Below, piece after piece: positions 4,050-64,000 of a stretch of DNA of 64,000 nt. Position 1 is the stretch's first letter; each line of letters begins with the position of its first letter. The notes beneath the pieces are model-generated. The model ran no database searches, had not been told where the DNA came from, and saw only the letters and a list, made by a program, of their open reading frames with translations. Position numbers and translations under genes: made by a program. Source of the stretch: a phage; assembly GCA_011816565.1 (NCBI GenBank), contig GCA_011816565.1_3614.1; one strand, given 5' to 3'.

Positions 4050-6121
4050 TGGCAACAGCTGTTTTTAAACCTTACCGTGATTACTCTACAATGGCTGCAC
4101 AGTTTCATTACCGAACAGTTCAGGATACTGCCGTTCCTGGTAGGGATTATAATCATGTTGAGGGCGATATAACTATCCCAGTTGGGGCAACAAGTATTGA
4201 GATCCCCGTGGAAATTGTTGACAAATTACCCAACAGGTTGCCAAGAAGCTTCTTTATGGAGTTTTCATCAAAATCCCAAGGGGTAATGATTGGAACACAA
4301 AGGGCGAAATGTACAATAGTTTCAGATGAGAATCTTGACAGGATATCTTGGGATACTGTTGAGGAGAGAATGTTTCACCCAAGGTATTGGGTTACAACTA
4401 CTCAGCAGACTGAAAGTACCTGTATTGTTGCAGATAACAACTGTTGTATTAACCGTTTAGTGTCAAGAACATATGGAGGTATGGCTGGGTGTATTTGGGA
4501 AACAGTTGACAAGTATGACCATTTCGGCATTGGGTTTGATGATCACTATGAGATGAGAAACACCAAGCTCTGGTTCAGAATGTCAATAACCAACGCCAGC
4601 AACTTCTCCACTCCTGAAAAGATGATTATGACTGTAGACCTTGTTGATGGCACAATCATCTATGTTCCTTTAGCTCAATATGCTGTCAGCATCTCAGAGG
4701 ATAAGAATGTTGCAGAAATTCATATTGATTTTGAGGACTGCGTCGGGATGGACCAGAACAACAACATGATGGGTGTTGATCCTCGGCAGGTGAGAAGGAT
4801 TTTAATACCACTCATGCCTAAAGACTGGGTAAGTAACAGCACAGACCCGAGAACGGAAAATGTAGAGTGTGAGTTGCGCCTAGATCTGCTTCAGCCAGAC
4901 ACAGGCTGGAAAATGATGCAACTTAACAATATTCAGGTTAAAGAGCACGACGTTGGGATCTGCACCGCATATGACGATATGTGGAACGTATCTCCTTTAA
5001 GGGTGTTGAACAATATCAAGCGTCTGGGCTATACCGGAACCATAAACCATTATGTTGGTATGAGTCATTATTATGACTACACATGGTCAGGAACCCAATG
5101 GTCTATAAACAGAACAGGGGCGCTAAACGCTGCAGCTTATAAATGGCATGATGATTTTATGCACAATGCCAAACGACATAACTTCGACGTTATGCAATCT
5201 GTAAGTTTTGAGCTTTTCAGCGATGCCTGCCCGTTGGAATGGACCCAAAGAGACTGGAACGATAACTACGCTAAAACAGGGTATACACCCTGTAGCTACC
5301 TCCTGTCTCCAACCATTGAAGAGGGTATGAATTTCCTTACTGCAGTATTTAAGAATTTTGCATCAGCCGCTATGAGAAACAACCTGCCAGTGATTATGCA
5401 GGTTGGTGAACCGTGGTGGTGGTACAATACCGATACTCGTAGACCTTGTATTTATGATTACCCTACAAAGCAGGCGTTTTATGATGAGACAGGTGAGTAT
5501 GCATTAGATATTGGGACTATTGACGATCCTAAAACTGGCGGTGTTTACGACAAGTATGTAGCATTTTGTCGTGGTAAGCTTGGCGCTCGTATTGCGGCTA
5601 TTTCAAAGGCAATAAAGGCACACGCTGCATCAGCTCAGATGACAGCTTTGCTGTTTTTCCCAACCATTATGGAAACCGAGCTTACGCAAAAGCTGAACCT
5701 TGCTGACCAATATAAAAAGGAAGCAGGTGCTCTTGATTTCTTCTGCACCGAGTGCTACGATTGGGTGATGCAGGGAGGTATTGAAAAGGCAAAAGAGTCT
5801 GTAAACATACCTATCGTTAAGTTAGGTTGGCAACCGTCTGAAATACAATACCTTGCAGGGTTCGTTCCTAGTAAAGAGCTTGCTCCGGTATATGGATACG
5901 ACCCAACTAGGAATTACCAAGAATTTTTATGGAGATGTATTTGCGGAAACATGGCAACTATAGAGTATAGATACCCTGAGGTAAAACAGTATGTGTGGGC
6001 ATACCCGCAAGTAATGTCTGACAGCATCACTGTTACCGCTAGAGATTCTACCGTGCTTCATATGGGGCAGGTTGCTCTGAAAGGGTATGTAGAGGATGTT
6101 GTCCCGCCAGACTTCTCATAA
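4049..6121 (+). CDS. tail-associated protein, possible glycanase-like domain
   Basis: 690-aa ORF, start overlaps upstream stop (TAATG). Central region has TIM-barrel-hydrolase-like motifs (VIMQVGEPWWWYN). Enzymatic assignment is speculative. Confidence 0.45.
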   Translation: MATAVFKPYRDYSTMAAQFHYRTVQDTAVPGRDYNHVEGDITIPVGATSIEIPVEIVDKLPNRLPRSFFMEFSSKSQGVMIGTQRAKCTIVSDENLDRISWDTVEERMFHPRYWVTTTQQTESTCIVADNNCCINRLVSRTYGGMAGCIWETVDKYDHFGIGFDDHYEMRNTKLWFRMSITNASNFSTPEKMIMTVDLVDGTIIYVPLAQYAVSISEDKNVAEIHIDFEDCVGMDQNNNMMGVDPRQVRRILIPLMPKDWVSNSTDPRTENVECELRLDLLQPDTGWKMMQLNNIQVKEHDVGICTAYDDMWNVSPLRVLNNIKRLGYTGTINHYVGMSHYYDYTWSGTQWSINRTGALNAAAYKWHDDFMHNAKRHNFDVMQSVSFELFSDACPLEWTQRDWNDNYAKTGYTPCSYLLSPTIEEGMNFLTAVFKNFASAAMRNNLPVIMQVGEPWWWYNTDTRRPCIYDYPTKQAFYDETGEYALDIGTIDDPKTGGVYDKYVAFCRGKLGARIAAISKAIKAHAASAQMTALLFFPTIMETELTQKLNLADQYKKEAGALDFFCTECYDWVMQGGIEKAKESVNIPIVKLGWQPSEIQYLAGFVPSKELAPVYGYDPTRNYQEFLWRCICGNMATIEYRYPEVKQYVWAYPQVMSDSITVTARDSTVLHMGQVALKGYVEDVVPPDFS

Positions 6122-6133
6122 TCAGGAGATAAA

Positions 6134-7174
6134 ATGTCAAAACCTAGTTTTCCATTAGAGATTTGGGCAGAGGAGGATCAGGTTCTGCCTAACACCCACA
6201 GACAGAACAGGCTACGCCCGATTGATGATTTGTGGAGAAAAGGTTGGGATCTTGGTCAAAAGCCCTCATGTGAAGAACTTAACTATATTTTCAATATGCT
6301 CGGAACTTGGGCAAAATACATTGCTGACGAGCAGATCCCCGCTCAAGAAGGCCGTTATCTGGTACGTGATAATAACTTGAGTGATCTTTTGAACATTCCT
6401 GTTGCCCGTAGAAACCTTGGGATTATTACTAAGGAAGAGGCAGACGCCAGGTATGTAAAAGTTACAGGTGATACAATGACAGGCCCATTGGGTTTGCAAC
6501 GTATCAACTTTAAAGCTGCCGAGACAGATAAGGCTTGGATAGAGACAACTATTGGCCCGGATAAGACAACTCTCGACTTTGGGTTAAGTGATAATGCTGG
6601 GTCGTTTGATGATGGTGGTACATCTACGGTAGATGCGTTTCGTTGGAGATTCCAGCCAACTCAGCCGGATATTAATCCAGAGTTCACTTTGATGTACCTT
6701 AACGCGATCACGGCTAATCGTGCGCTGTTGAAAGTGGTAGGCAATGTTGAAGTTGTCGATAACATGAGGTGCAATAACCTTACTATCAGCAATACAGCAA
6801 CATTCACCAACTGTAATGTGGCCAGTCAGTTGACGGCTGGGTCAGTATATGTTAATGGTGGTGCAAGTTGTGACAGTATGGTTGTAAGAAGCCAGCACTG
6901 TGTTGTAGGTAACAGAAATGTGGTGCGCTCCGTGAATGGAGTGACGGCTAACGGTAACGGTGATGTAACGATCACTATCCCGCAGACAGGTGTGCAAGAC
7001 ATCAGAATCGGTGCAAGACTTGTGGACGGCGTTTCTGAATCTCCAATCCGCAACGGCTACGTTGTCACAGGCTGGCATTTCGGTGACAAAAAAGAGATGC
7101 GTGGTTCAACCTACTGGGCAGGACCTTTACAAAAACTTGTAAATGGTCAATGGATCACTGTTAATTATGCATAG
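6134..7174 (+). CDS. tail fibre protein (paralogue A)
   Basis: N-terminus (PSFPLEIWAEEDQVLPNT...KGWDLGQKPSCEELNYIFNMLGTWAKYI) and C-terminus (YWAGPLQKLVNGQWITVNYA) are conserved with ORF 8189-9232; centre divergent. Confidence 0.6.
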   Translation: MSKPSFPLEIWAEEDQVLPNTHRQNRLRPIDDLWRKGWDLGQKPSCEELNYIFNMLGTWAKYIADEQIPAQEGRYLVRDNNLSDLLNIPVARRNLGIITKEEADARYVKVTGDTMTGPLGLQRINFKAAETDKAWIETTIGPDKTTLDFGLSDNAGSFDDGGTSTVDAFRWRFQPTQPDINPEFTLMYLNAITANRALLKVVGNVEVVDNMRCNNLTISNTATFTNCNVASQLTAGSVYVNGGASCDSMVVRSQHCVVGNRNVVRSVNGVTANGNGDVTITIPQTGVQDIRIGARLVDGVSESPIRNGYVVTGWHFGDKKEMRGSTYWAGPLQKLVNGQWITVNYA

Positions 7175-51712: not shown

Positions 51713-51830
51713 AAAATTTCTATACGGGAATATTTTATGGGATACTGTTTTATAGGAAATTGTTACGGAGGGTAATTAGCGTGCTAATTAAATTTATTAA
51801 ATGCGAGGAGTTCTCATTTAGAATTTTGAA

Positions 51831-52034
51831 TGATAATCATTCTCGTTTGCAGAATAACGGGCAGGCCCGGTGATTGTCTCCCGGCCCCTACTGCCCCGGC
51901 TTGTTATTATAGTAACACACAGGACAAAGAAAGCAAGAAGTTTTTGCATAAATTTTTAGACGATAATGATAATCGTTCTCATTTCATGCAGCGCCCATCC
52001 CCGGTGGTTGTCTCCCCCGTCACCGGTGCCTGCC
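51831..52034. repeat. GC-rich structured repeat (two tandem units)
   Basis: Units at about 51831-51890 and 51967-52020 share TGATAATC(A/G)TTCTC...CCGGTG(A/G)TTGTCTCCC; 5' GGCAGGCCCGGTG and 3' CACCGGTGCCTGCC are complementary. A shorter inverted copy lies at 60983-61025. Confidence 0.5.
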
Positions 52035-52058
52035 GTCCTTTCGATAGGTATATTTTGC

Positions 52059-52198
52059 CACCTGGCGGGGCCGCTGTCAACACTTTTCAAAAAAAAATTC
52101 TAACCTGATGCGCTGACCGCTGCAACCTGGCGGGGCCAGCCTGGCAGGGCCTAACTGACCAGGTAGGAGAGAATGAAGGCTTGCAAACCTGGTGGGCC
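52059..52198. repeat. direct repeats of ACCTGGCGGGGCC
   Basis: CACCTGGCGGGGCC (52059), CAACCTGGCGGGGCC (52123), AACCTGGTGGGCC (52186); a fourth variant lies inside the next small ORF. Confidence 0.45.
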
Positions 52199-61466: not shown

Positions 61467-61730
61467 ATGAAACGTCTTGATCAGCTCAAACTAGTTCAGT
61501 ACATGGCCTACAAAGTTCTTGAAGTCCAAAAAGGTAGCAAAAAAGAGGTTTGCGAGAAAGCATATAAGATCTTTACCCGTAAAAAAGATGATTGGATGTT
61601 ACGCCAGACCAAAAAAGCCGATATCCTGGGGTACCTGGAAGAAGAGATCCGACTTGAAGAGCAAGAAGAGATCCGCCGCAGTGAAGCAGATTATCAGGCA
61701 GCTTGGGAAAACTGGATGAATAACAAATAA
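61467..61730 (+). CDS. hypothetical protein
   Basis: 87 aa with RBS (AAAGAGG); preferred over the overlapping frame 61519-61719. Confidence 0.45.
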   Translation: MKRLDQLKLVQYMAYKVLEVQKGSKKEVCEKAYKIFTRKKDDWMLRQTKKADILGYLEEEIRLEEQEEIRRSEADYQAAWENWMNNK

Positions 61731-61875: not shown

Positions 61876-62295
61876 ATGAACATCAAATCTAATAATCCGG
61901 CATATAGCTTTGATAACGCTTTTTGTCACGGTCCGGCGGCGAAAGGATTCGAAATCGATGGTAAACTAATTATTGTCAATGTTGACGGGGAAGAGGTTGC
62001 AGTATATCCGGTGGCAGACGTAAAAAGCCGTTTACAATGCCGCATTGATGTTACCGCCTATCAGCTTGATCCGGTCCGCATAGTTGCCCTGGTCCTGGAA
62101 GAAGAAATTAAAGCCATGCACCATAGCAACAGGTTTATTGGTGACGCTCAGGACAATATGAAGGTGTGCCGCCATAAAGTTAATGAAGTGCTTAAAGAAT
62201 ACGGCTTTAAAGATCTGATGATCAAACGTGAGGAAAAATTCCGCTACCGTAACGACCTGGCAAATCGGATTTTTGAAATATACGAATCATTATAA
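61876..62295 (+). CDS. hypothetical protein
   Basis: 139 aa with RBS (AAGAGG); last gene of the small-gene array; followed by terminator. Confidence 0.5.
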   Translation: MNIKSNNPAYSFDNAFCHGPAAKGFEIDGKLIIVNVDGEEVAVYPVADVKSRLQCRIDVTAYQLDPVRIVALVLEEEIKAMHHSNRFIGDAQDNMKVCRHKVNEVLKEYGFKDLMIKREEKFRYRNDLANRIFEIYESL

Positions 62296-62313
62296 TTTTT
62301 AACTGAATTATCA

Positions 62314-62338
62314 AGGGGCCTTAGCCCCTTTCTTTTTG
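62314..62338 (+). terminator. rho-independent terminator
   Basis: AGGGGC-CTTA-GCCCCT hairpin followed by TTCTTTTTG. Confidence 0.6.
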
Positions 62339-62947
62339 TCTGCTCTTCCCCCTACCATAAACGGCCCTACCTGACAAGTGGAATAATTGACGAGCCATCA
62401 ATCCCGCACACTGTACAAATATACATGTAAAATAGTTATTGCATAACCTTTCATTGTGTGGTAGCAGGGCTATTTTTACCCGTTTTCCCTTCCAAAATTG
62501 CACGTAATGCCGCTATTGCACAAATTTTAACCTGATGCAGATCTTCAATATCTTGTCAACAAGTAAAAATTCTTATAAGTCATACACTTACACAAACTAA
62601 AAAGCGTGTTCTACGCGAAAAATCGAGTATAACTATAGCCGCCAGATCTCAGAATTCACGTACGCACGCCATTCTATAGCCTGCAAAGTATTTATTCCAA
62701 CCACAGAATAACGGAATAGCCAATACCTGCATAAAATAATTATTCGTGTAAACTGCATAACATAAATCAGCTCAGGTGTCAACATTTTTCGTAAACAGTC
62801 CGAAATTATCACGATGAGTTATCATAAACAGAGAAATCTTTAGTCGTCTAATGTTTACTGTACATTACTATACTGACTGGAATCATTAGATGACTAAGAG
62901 AAAGATAAGAAATAATTAATAATGTGATTATTTTACCTGTAACAATA

Positions 62948-63172
62948 AGGCAACTATGCAAACGAATGGCATGGCGCGACGGAGTCGCGACATAATATAA
63001 AAGCAGTAACCATCACCCCCGTGATAGTTTGTCTGCAAACTATTAATCAGATCATAGTTGCCTTGTATTTAGTTAATCATGACATAACAAGCAAGGCAAC
63101 TATAGATCTGCTAATAGTTGCCCTGCTTTTATATTATGTCATAGGAACGCCCGAAGGGGTGACCTAGTCACC
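62948..63172. repeat. palindrome/inverted-repeat cluster in AT-rich non-coding region
   Basis: ATAGTTTG-TCTG-CAAACTAT palindrome (63024-63043); AAGGCAACTAT/ATAGTTGCC in both orientations (62948, 63054, 63093, 63112); inverted pair CGCGACATAATATAAAAGCAG (62986) / CTGCTTTTATATTATGTC (63123); GGTGACCTAGTCACC palindrome (63158); ATGCAAACGAATGGCATGGC direct repeat (62956, 63230). Confidence 0.55.
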
Positions 63173-64000
63173 TGGCATAGCCAGCGAAAGATTATTAACT
63201 TGTCGATTGTTATCTTGTTAATTGTTTTCATGCAAACGAATGGCATGGCTTATCATCTATGCGTGAACAGTGAGGCATGCAATAGTAACAATTGTTATTG
63301 TATCCAGTGTGTTGAGTATGCCCAGTGTGTCACTATTATGTCATATTATGTCACAGTATGTCAGACAAGTTTTTCTCCTCTTTGTCAAGTGCTGCATGAA
63401 AAATTTACAAGCTTGTATGGTAGCATTTTTGCGGCCCTGTTTACATTCAGTAGTGTATGTATAATCCTTGTTGTGTGGGCGTTTAGACGTCTAGACGGTT
63501 GGAAGTCCACAGGTCAATATCTAATCTATCGGCTGCTAACTATATCCCACACAAATAGTAAGAAATATGATTGTTATATGCGTAAACTGTAACTCATGTT
63601 ATCAATCCCTGTATGGATCGCCAGTGGTGCGCATAATGGGTATTATGTTAAATTGCCAGTAATGATAACTATTCTCACAATGATAGGTATTCTCATTCAC
63701 TCCCACAAGATAGGTTGCAAATGTTGTGCCACTGTGTGAACGGCCTCACCTATTAATTTGCCTCACTGCCTCGATATTTGAGAATTGTTATAAGAATGAG
63801 AAGTATTCCCATTTCGTCCGCCTGGCAGCACTCCAGTCGCTACCGGCTCCTGACAGGGAGGCACTCCTGTTGGTCAGGTCAAAATCGGGGTAGAACTGGG
63901 CCTGTTCAGATATTTCTGGCTGACGCTTCAGGTCTGTGTGGGAAAAGACAACCTCCCCGACGGGGCAGGGGGGTGTCTGCTGGAAAATTGCAGGTCAATT

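Follow-up and report, generated by a model that had tools for sequence, protein, structure and literature searches.

A conserved palindromic module beside the terminal repeat in the gene-free gap of rV5-like phages as a candidate genome-maturation signal

The concatemer junction of phages T7 and T3, with its 160–230-bp terminal repeat, the short subterminal repeat arrays SRL and SRR, pac signals, phiOR and phiOL, is the closest known analogue of the locus described here. This locus is a dense cluster of palindromes and repeats near the end of a 64,000-nucleotide stretch of phage DNA (assembly GCA_011816565.1, contig GCA_011816565.1_3614.1; the whole stretch is hereafter called the window), which lies in a gene-free gap of rV5-like phages next to a direct terminal repeat (DTR), and whose core may act in cis as a signal for genome maturation. 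Like the T7 junction, it combines a short exact direct terminal repeat, sequence-defined ends, a largely non-coding junction and cis-elements outside the repeat, and in both cases a short degenerate repeat array adjoins the repeat boundary, at the right end in T7 and at 63250–63363 here. Unlike in T7, a palindrome of 152–230 bp with a perfect outer stem of 18–21 bp is present in the rV5 group and its sister genera, and no large palindrome was found within ~650 bp of the repeat at the T7 right end. The genes converge on the rV5-type junction, while those of T7 all run in one direction, and there is no sequence homology between the two junctions. Since the rV5 group has no phage RNA polymerase, the transcription-coupled maturation of T7 is not simply transferable to it. 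A 'hairpin end' intermediate in the regeneration of the T7 repeat, arising from a hairpin-forming sequence close to it, was reportedly proposed by Chung, Nardone and Hinkle in 1990.

Two further systems offer partial parallels. At the lambda cosB site, the small-terminase sites R3-I1-R2-R1 stand beside the nicking site cosN, and as at cosB, several elements of a terminase type, ~10–16 bp long and in alternating orientation, lie within a few hundred base pairs of the cut at the locus studied here. The likeness would extend to a non-coding, essential and cis-acting site, with small-terminase binding at the core being putative. Unlike lambda, the locus has a 459-bp repeat instead of 12-nt cohesive ends, no IHF consensus, and a variable spacing to the cut (177–307 bp). 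The 'a' sequence of herpes simplex virus (HSV) is a terminal direct repeat of 200–500 bp with variable tandem arrays and flanking pac signals that must be regenerated at cleavage. In HSV oriL, inverted initiator sites surround the AT-rich centre of a palindrome of 144 bp. The comparison is no more than an analogy; HSV is a eukaryotic virus without homology to the phage, its pac signals lie inside the repeat and its palindromic origins elsewhere in the genome.

The Vibrio myovirus ICP1 is among the closest DNA-polymerase homologs in the rV5 genome paper (PMC3606486). As in the rV5-type gap, the ICP1 termini lie in a space without open reading frames (ORFs), 1.3 kb long and located between gp1 and gp2, together with a pac site and an adjacent rolling-circle origin. 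Two cut positions are found there ~460 bp apart with extra coverage between them, and AATGAGAAT / Fur-box-like palindromes are shared in the terminal region. Unlike the rV5-type gap, the ICP1 region lies between divergent genes and ICP1 has been interpreted as a headful (pac) packager; it has neither a large palindrome nor the conserved GRCGGAC end sequence.

Positions 62200–64000 of the window were searched with megablast, and 120 phage records were matched at 91–96% identity, essentially all of them from rV5-like myoviruses (Vequintavirus). In annotated relatives the locus is a gene-free gap of ~2.5 kb, with convergent gene blocks on both sides and the dyad cluster inside. In the window, whose orientation is the reverse complement of the rV5 reference record, the plus-strand genes stop at 62295; the gene that comes next, ~0.8 kb past the window end, has the minus orientation. 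Several GenBank records start or end within this gap. In the EdH4 record, the first 459 bp equal the last 459 bp and the first base corresponds to window position 63822; '458 bp terminal redundancies' were stated in Korf 2019. A search with 63364–63822 alone matched HdK5, YN3 and four bov phages at record positions 1–459 (1–458 in YN3), and the segment is present at two places each in HdK5 and YN3. Altogether nine GenBank records from at least five submitters begin at a boundary of this segment, eight at 63822, as EdH4 and ECP2309 do, and one, Pr121LW, at the opposite boundary, 63364.

Given the coincident record ends and the terminal duplication, the segment 63364–63822 is the DTR. The relatives on which this was tested are 95–98% identical to the window phage, and by this comparison the virion DNA of the window phage is linear with a 459-bp direct terminal repeat. 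The boundaries are sequence-defined, and they are the same across relatives and in the Klebsiella phage KPP-1 of the genus Mydovirus. An earlier reading of the window, made from the letters alone (the sequence-only reading), had suggested a packaging or terminase recognition site and a module or genome boundary nearby, the latter from a sharp rise in GC content after 63780. The rise is real, although it sits at ~63820 and coincides with the DTR end at 63822. The GC step is thus the DTR end itself, and both suggestions, the nearby boundary and the packaging site, are favoured by position, the DTR lying 224 bp from the dyad cluster.

The individual repeats listed by the sequence-only reading were recovered. 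The 8+4+8 palindrome ATAGTTTG-TCTG-CAAACTAT and the GGTGAC-CTA-GTCACC palindrome are present (Table 1), as are four copies of GGCAACTAT at 62949(+), 63054(−), 63095(+) and 63114(−), and both copies of the 20-bp direct repeat, which start at 62956 and 63230. The 18-nt inverted pair is perfect, but its left arm begins at 62989, 3 nt downstream of the 62986 given before. The claimed richness in dyads also held, with 15 exact 10-mer inverted pairs (≤300 bp apart) in 62900–63200 against 0.25 in dinucleotide shuffles, none of 300 shuffles reaching 15, and 900-bp windows over the core rank highest in the 64 kb by this measure. Its extent had been overstated, since the enrichment is confined to ~250 bp (~62940–63185) of the ~900 bp described, and 62300–62900 is not enriched. 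Similarly, the region is AT-rich only modestly (38.5% GC compared with ~44% for the window), apart from one 80% AT patch at 62900–62940.

At the centre of the cluster is a nested imperfect palindrome of 152 bp, for which a 152-nt nested hairpin is predicted on either strand, with a fold z-score of ~−10 on both strands for 63000–63119. Its outer arms are perfect over 18 bp (62989–63006 with 63123–63140), its inner arms lie at 63039–63065 and 63092–63120, and its central loop is ~26 nt long and AT-rich. The GGCAACTAT motif is designated M1, the 20-bp direct repeat M2 and the 10-bp unit TATTATGTCA M3. Copies 2–4 of M1 (63054−, 63095+ and 63114−) are carried by two dyads of the AACTAT-N10-ATAGTTGCC type, which are composed of GGCAACTAT copies and the CAAACTAT palindrome. 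Between the palindrome and the DTR stands a subterminal array with 1–8 GTRAAY(A/T)RT units among relatives, and three tandem units of M3 (63328–63363) stop exactly at the DTR boundary. Because the array varies in copy number, the distance from palindrome to DTR ranges from 177 to 307 bp across relatives.

Table 1 Features of the gap and its borders in the window (position 1 is the first letter of the 64,000-nucleotide stretch; M1 and M2 as in the text; MFE, minimum free energy)
Feature	Position	Strand	Evidence or remark
Last plus-strand gene	61876–62295	+	139 aa (amino acids), rv5_gp159 = ORF164, phrog_12277, function-unknown family
Intrinsic terminator	62313–62330	+	Terminator scan: 7-bp GC stem, then T-run
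Conserved non-coding block A	62331–62939		90–98% column identity; above flanking genes
AT-richest patch, 80% A+T	62900–62940		40-bp composition scan; directly adjoins core
M1 copy 1 AAGGCAACTAT, overlapping M2 copy 1 ATGCAAACGAATGGCATGGC (62956–62975)	62947–62975	+	Repeat search
Small hairpin-type palindrome CGCGAC-GGA-GTCGCG	62975–62989		Invariant
152-bp nested imperfect palindrome (core)	62989–63140		MFE fold, inverted pairs
Two overlapping internal hairpins	63008–63043		ACCATCAC-CCCC-GTGAT(A)GT; ATAGTTTG-TCTG-CAAACTAT (63024–63043)
Two dyads (C/G)AA(A/C)CTAT-N10-ATAGTTGCC	63036–63062, 63095–63122		GATC in each spacer; 60-bp spacing
Variable segment with small hairpins CCC-GAA-GGG, GGTGAC-CTA-GTCACC (63158–63172) and TGGC-ATA-GCCA	63146–63229		
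M2 (20-bp direct repeat) copy 2	63230–63249	+	In all 13 phages, one substitution in SophiaRose
Variable-copy subterminal array	63250–63363	+	GTRAAY(A/T)RT units, 15–16-bp period
459-bp DTR (virion DNA ends; concatemer junction)	63364–63822		Record ends, relatives
Three 19-bp Fur-box-like palindromes AATGAkAnn-T-ATTCyCAyw	63661, 63679, 63795 (63661–63813)		Inside DTR
Variable segment outside the other DTR boundary	63823–63872	+	Direct repeat GGCA(G)CACTCCWGT twice

Conservation was assessed in an alignment of 13 vequintavirus genomes, and the integrity of ORFs in 12 relatives. The non-coding gap is better conserved than the flanking genes, the DTR is conserved at 91–98%, and hypervariable stretches lie exactly at both DTR boundaries. 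Positions 62944–63043 are 98–99% invariant in the 13 phages, with a peak of 49 invariant columns of 50 in the core (62940–63145), so the objection foreseen by the sequence-only reading, that the repeats might not be conserved in relatives, clearly fails. M1 copy 1 and copy 1 of the 20-bp repeat are invariant except in Alma, which has a 1-nt insertion just 3′ of the repeat. The palindrome arms are likewise essentially invariant, while changes fall into the loop: in V5, 33 bp are inserted precisely at the central loop, where the substitutions of locus L008 also cluster. The variable segment 63146–63229 is dispensable in many relatives, the GGTGAC hairpin being deleted in 7 of the 13 phages and kept with an altered loop (CTA to CAAAG) in navn, V5 and APCEc02.

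The gap holds no credible ORF, as had been proposed. Every ORF of at least 48 aa is interrupted by stop codons or frameshifts in the majority of the 12 relatives or in all of them, and only the two closest phages depart from this; no PHROG match was found, and substitutions show no 3-base periodicity. Hidden small genes were therefore rejected, and the 'hypothetical', 'membrane' and 'structural protein' annotations in some records are over-calls whose ORFs are broken in relatives. No Rfam family was found in the gap at E ≤ 1 (window 50–64 kb and the 9.8-kb JohannBauhin locus), and ARAGORN found no tRNA. A scan of the gap for protein sites gave 0 DnaA boxes even when a mismatch was tolerated, 0 IHF consensus matches and no Chi site, with GATC below the genome average. 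Scanning IMG/VR with the core sequence returned 2 contigs, and scanning with the cut-site motif returned mostly chance 14-mer matches.

The authors of the rV5 genome paper had shown the gap as a grey 'non-coding' box and remarked on the switch of GC skew there (PMC3606486). In the HIDEN-SEQ preprint (10.1101/2025.11.20.689424), a convergent intergenic region of ~2 kb in phage Bas54 received zero transposon insertions, and its authors ascribed to the insertion-free region an important role of unknown nature. This region is very probably the gap described here, because the gap is the sole one of its kind in the sister phages Bas53 and Bas55, from which, rather than from the Bas54 record, the equivalence was drawn.

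The same module could be recognised beyond Vequintavirus. In KPP-1, two-fold coverage and PhageTerm define a DTR of 514 bp (PMC9862379), which also lies at a convergent junction in a sparse gap. A large palindrome sits ~310 bp past one DTR boundary, with a perfect 21-nt outer stem around smaller palindromes. The KPP-1 gap can be aligned at the nucleotide level with that of Seunavirus (PVP-SE1, 4MG and GAP31; 70–76% identity), and a profile built from this alignment finds the DTR of Vequintavirus in collinear matches (E-values 5e-5 and 6e-3). The homologues of rv5_gp133 and gp167 in PVP-SE1 set the orientation, and the layouts are then collinear. No homology was found between the flanking genes of KPP-1 and those of the window. 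In Mydovirus and Seunavirus (KPP-1, Mydo, PVP-SE1, 4MG and GAP31), the terminal module, with its palindrome at ~310 bp, is a collinear and positionally homologous counterpart at the same convergent gene junction, and from the layout shared by three genera we conclude that the order of DTR, variable segment, large palindrome and conserved block is ancestral to at least three genera.

The interior of the DTR and both cut sites are recognisably homologous between Mydovirus/Seunavirus and Vequintavirus, and both DTR boundaries of the window coincide with the KPP-1 DTR ends to within one base. On the palindrome side the sequence is ...GAATTGTGTT/TAGCA in KPP-1 and ...AAACTTGTC/TGACA in the reverse complement of the window, the slash marking the boundary. 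At the other boundary (window 63816–63827), Mydovirus, Seunavirus and Henunavirus share TGYTA/GACGGACA, and Vequintavirus has TGCCA/GGCGGACG. The cut sites were compared in the window and in loci L007 and L018–L027, and the boundary sequence common to the four genera is a candidate terminase cleavage site. One record in this comparison, PQ002170.1 (Salmonella phage R7, L027), is filed under Demerecviridae and yet has a Seunavirus-type terminal module with its palindrome, so that the filing is likely a taxonomy error in the record.

The palindromes themselves cannot be aligned between the two groups, and the half-site is GACACAATAACAC in Mydovirus/Seunavirus instead of GGCAACTAT. Their modes of evolution also differ, in that the arms are invariant in Vequintavirus and show compensatory changes in Mydovirus/Seunavirus. 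When the palindrome was aligned from ten Mydovirus and Seunavirus genomes, 4 of the 18 pairs of the 18-bp outer stem were changed on both sides and none on one side only, leaving the stem 100% paired, and the inner hairpin contributed 2 further double changes. The covariation score was 0.122, compared with 0.050 in shuffles (0 of 500 reached it), and shifting the partner by 1–3 columns abolished the pairing. All outer-stem replacements are Watson-Crick, with no G-U intermediates, which together with the equal folding of both strands is the pattern of a DNA palindrome and not of an RNA. The loops carry insertions of 33–85 bp (33 in V5, 50–85 in the sister genera) that are themselves hairpin-prone, and this placement in loops favours a DNA element that folds over duplex sites at a rigid spacing. 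In the Mydovirus/Seunavirus homologue, the aligned sequences thus argue for a conserved DNA palindrome that is kept self-complementary. As a separate observation, an insertion of ~90 bp duplicates the left outer arm GACACWATAACAC upstream in PVP-SE1 (L018, 2780–2872), AV124 (L022, 2406–2497) and R7 (L027, 1572–1664), so arm duplication or conversion seems to occur in the terminal module.

Taken by its position beside the genome ends, its conservation and its probable essentiality, the core is best read as a cis-acting element of the concatemer junction, a genome-maturation signal that would serve terminase recognition or regeneration of the DTR. We assign this reading a probability of about one half. 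In replicating concatemers, the gap DNA would form one flank of the junction. The parts of the core would be the 152-bp palindrome of GGCAACTAT half-sites with its 18-bp stem, the pair of 20-bp repeats and the 15–16-bp array. A small terminase or an accessory protein might recognise the repeated half-sites or an extruded hairpin or cruciform, whereupon the packaging machinery would cut at the two sequence-defined boundaries, and the single repeat at the junction would be regenerated to give two copies per packaged genome. We infer that the core is read by the terminase or by the maturation machinery, and that the DNA takes part in a folded form.

A more specific version, in which the palindrome is a DNA hairpin or cruciform required for regeneration of the terminal repeat or for the onset of late replication at the junction, is tentative and on balance doubtful. 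If true, it would provide the first sequence-defined and phylogenetically supported 'hairpin intermediate' of the kind proposed for T7, and the palindrome, conserved over at least three Vequintavirinae genera, would explain much of the probably essential non-coding region of ~2 kb found by transposon sequencing.

Several points weigh against the maturation signal. The function of the core is deduced from position and conservation alone. The varying distance of 177–307 bp between palindrome and cut means that the palindrome cannot be a fixed-distance ruler for cutting. The inner-arm variants A63039T and G63110T, each found in 5 of the 13 phages, break pairs without compensation, the former one pair in the internal hairpins at 63008–63043. 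Covariation is confined to the sister genera, since the arms are invariant within Vequintavirus, and the two-arm compensation of the sister genera could equally come from two identical protein sites or from conversion between the arms. Block A (~600 bp) is conserved and yet not explained by a packaging model; its inverted repeats do not exceed the shuffle level and its ORFs are broken in relatives. The insertion gap in the HIDEN-SEQ data could be partly technical, since the preprint leaves unsaid if the selectable anti-CRISPR gene has a promoter of its own. Finally, several papers (including PMC3606486) call vequintaviruses circularly permuted or headful packagers, although we regard the independently chosen record ends and the match across genera as the stronger evidence.

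The same architecture could belong to a replication origin of a late, rolling-circle or end-proximal secondary kind, in which inverted initiator half-sites load helicases bidirectionally, as likened to HSV oriL/oriS, the SV40 core origin, the P4 ori iterons and T7 phiOL/phiOR. Inverted half-sites surround the AT-rich 26-nt centre beside the 80% AT patch, and the core is invariant and probably essential. The T7 secondary origins phiOL and phiOR flank the concatemer junction, with the phiOR promoter annotated 550 bp from the T7 terminal repeat, and the ICP1 rolling-circle origin maps beside the packaging site in a region without ORFs. A second origin had also been suggested by the sequence-only reading, but as a primary origin the locus is disfavoured by gene orientation, GC skew and the lack of DnaA and IHF sites. 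The genes converge at ~62 kb, where the cumulative GC skew has a local maximum, and forks leaving the locus would meet both major transcription units head-on, as is typical of a terminus. With 0 DnaA boxes, 0 IHF consensus sites and no GATC enrichment, with repeats that are inverted and not regularly spaced direct iterons, and with a linkage to the DTR boundary conserved in three genera that an origin does not need, we keep an origin as a rival and consider it rather unlikely.

Transcription signals, namely operators of a phage regulator (repressor or activator), bidirectional terminators or a structured non-coding RNA gene, appear improbable. Convergent units do need termination, a terminator-like hairpin is present on the minus strand at 63029–63008, and the folding energy is strongly below that of shuffles. 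However, a good terminator already exists at 62313–62330, Rfam returned nothing at E ≤ 1, and the folding pattern is that of DNA, as described above. Weak promoter-like sites on the minus strand (63364–63335) and, across the gap, a strong sigma70-like promoter aimed at the DTR would suit such signals, but the candidate promoter region 63250–63364 is hypervariable and is deleted in bov10K2. The operator arrays proposed by the sequence-only reading found no support, since no promoter in the rest of the 64 kb carries the motifs. In this scope, which covers about half of the genome, 4 of the 6 copies of M1, both copies of M2 and 3 of the 4 copies of M3 are at the locus, essentially only at 62940–63360, and no strong promoter overlaps them; this local distribution argues against a genome-wide operator. 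Least probable, and in our view very unlikely, is a signal of DNA entry near the end that pauses or controls ejection, or that protects the incoming end by binding proteins of host or phage, like the 'injection stop signal' of T5 in its non-coding region rich in repeats and palindromes. A non-coding segment dense in repeats and palindromes does lie within ~1.5 kb of the genome end, either leading end holds only non-coding DNA and gene 3′ ends, and three phage lineages have Fur-box-like palindromes in their terminal region. Yet there is no evidence of two-step transfer in rV5-like phages, Chi sites and DnaA boxes are absent, and nothing tells which end leads; in T5, the signal is located far from the end, within a repeat of 10 kb.

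In Vequintavirus and KPP-1, Fur-box-like palindromes of 19 bp (AATGAkAAn-n-nTTCTCATT, core AATGAGAAT) are found inside the terminal repeat or beside it. The DTR is enriched for them, and the exact 9-mer AATGAGAAT occurs only twice in the 64-kb window. Positions outside the window are L007 4214–4960 and L017 870–955, and in the ICP1 terminus region TGATAACTATTATCA fits the 7-1-7 Fur consensus at 13 of 14 positions. By analogy with the use of IHF by lambda at cos, host Fur is a possible architectural factor that would be recruited by the DTR palindromes. Because a 53-bp insertion splits one of the boxes in Mydo, we retain them as an observation and not as an explanation.

On the far side of the gap, beyond window position 64000, an ultra-conserved non-coding block was found at 5986–6580 of the JohannBauhin locus (L002), its column identity reaching 99.8% among 12 phages. 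It contains a strong sigma70-like promoter on the minus strand (6487–6460; 11/12 matches plus TG) directed at the DTR, in a manner reminiscent of T7 phiOR, which reads into the junction; a small hairpin and T-run are also present (6437–6425). The block might encode a non-coding RNA or belong to the essential element. On the near side, the intrinsic terminator ends the last plus-strand gene, that is, the transcription unit of rV5 ORF238 to ORF164; among five aligned phages, its loop is variable and its stem is kept. The rv5_gp159 gene is missing or replaced in 5 of the 13 aligned vequintaviruses, where the gene of an 87-aa protein (61467–61730 in the window) adjoins the gap. This protein is named 'DNA translocase FtsK' in several GenBank records. 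Neither an FtsK nor a DNA-binding identity could be upheld, given that Pfam gave no FtsK or winged-helix match and only sub-threshold noise, and the name looks like a propagated mis-annotation.

A second non-coding stretch, at 51800–52060, contains two repeat units ~135 bp apart. In each unit, a segment that is GC-rich and hairpin-prone comes after a Fur-box-like palindrome (AATGATAATCATTCTCG at 51829, GATAATGATAATCGTTCTCATT at 51962). Neither a tRNA nor an Rfam family was found in this stretch, which is possibly involved in iron- or Fur-responsive regulation or encodes small RNAs. In the database comparison, 18 unannotated GenBank records of the MG0656xx series, named 'Campylobacter phage' with C. 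jejuni as host, are 93–96% identical here to rV5-like phages of E. coli, and are probably mislabelled or contaminant assemblies.

The gap, the length of the DTR and the lack of insertions have each been published already, separately. In the literature that we searched, there appears to be no description of a DTR with both cut sites inside an essential gap and flanked by a nearly invariant palindrome, nor of a module spanning several genera with compensatory arm evolution and a shared cut-site sequence. The rV5-like phages are among the most often isolated coliphages and common candidates for therapy, and their genomes are deposited as 'circularly permuted' with arbitrary starts. The gap was flagged in 2013 and what is very probably the same gap was found free of insertions in 2025, neither of which was explained; the genome ends placed inside the gap, together with the almost invariant palindrome, its compensatory evolution in the sister genera and the cut-site sequence common to four genera, now offer a testable model of genome maturation. 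Practical rules would follow for where to linearise and orient assemblies, for the DNA to be spared in engineering, and for the fragment that would make a plasmid packageable, and the cut-site sequence could be used for orienting the assemblies of the whole subfamily.

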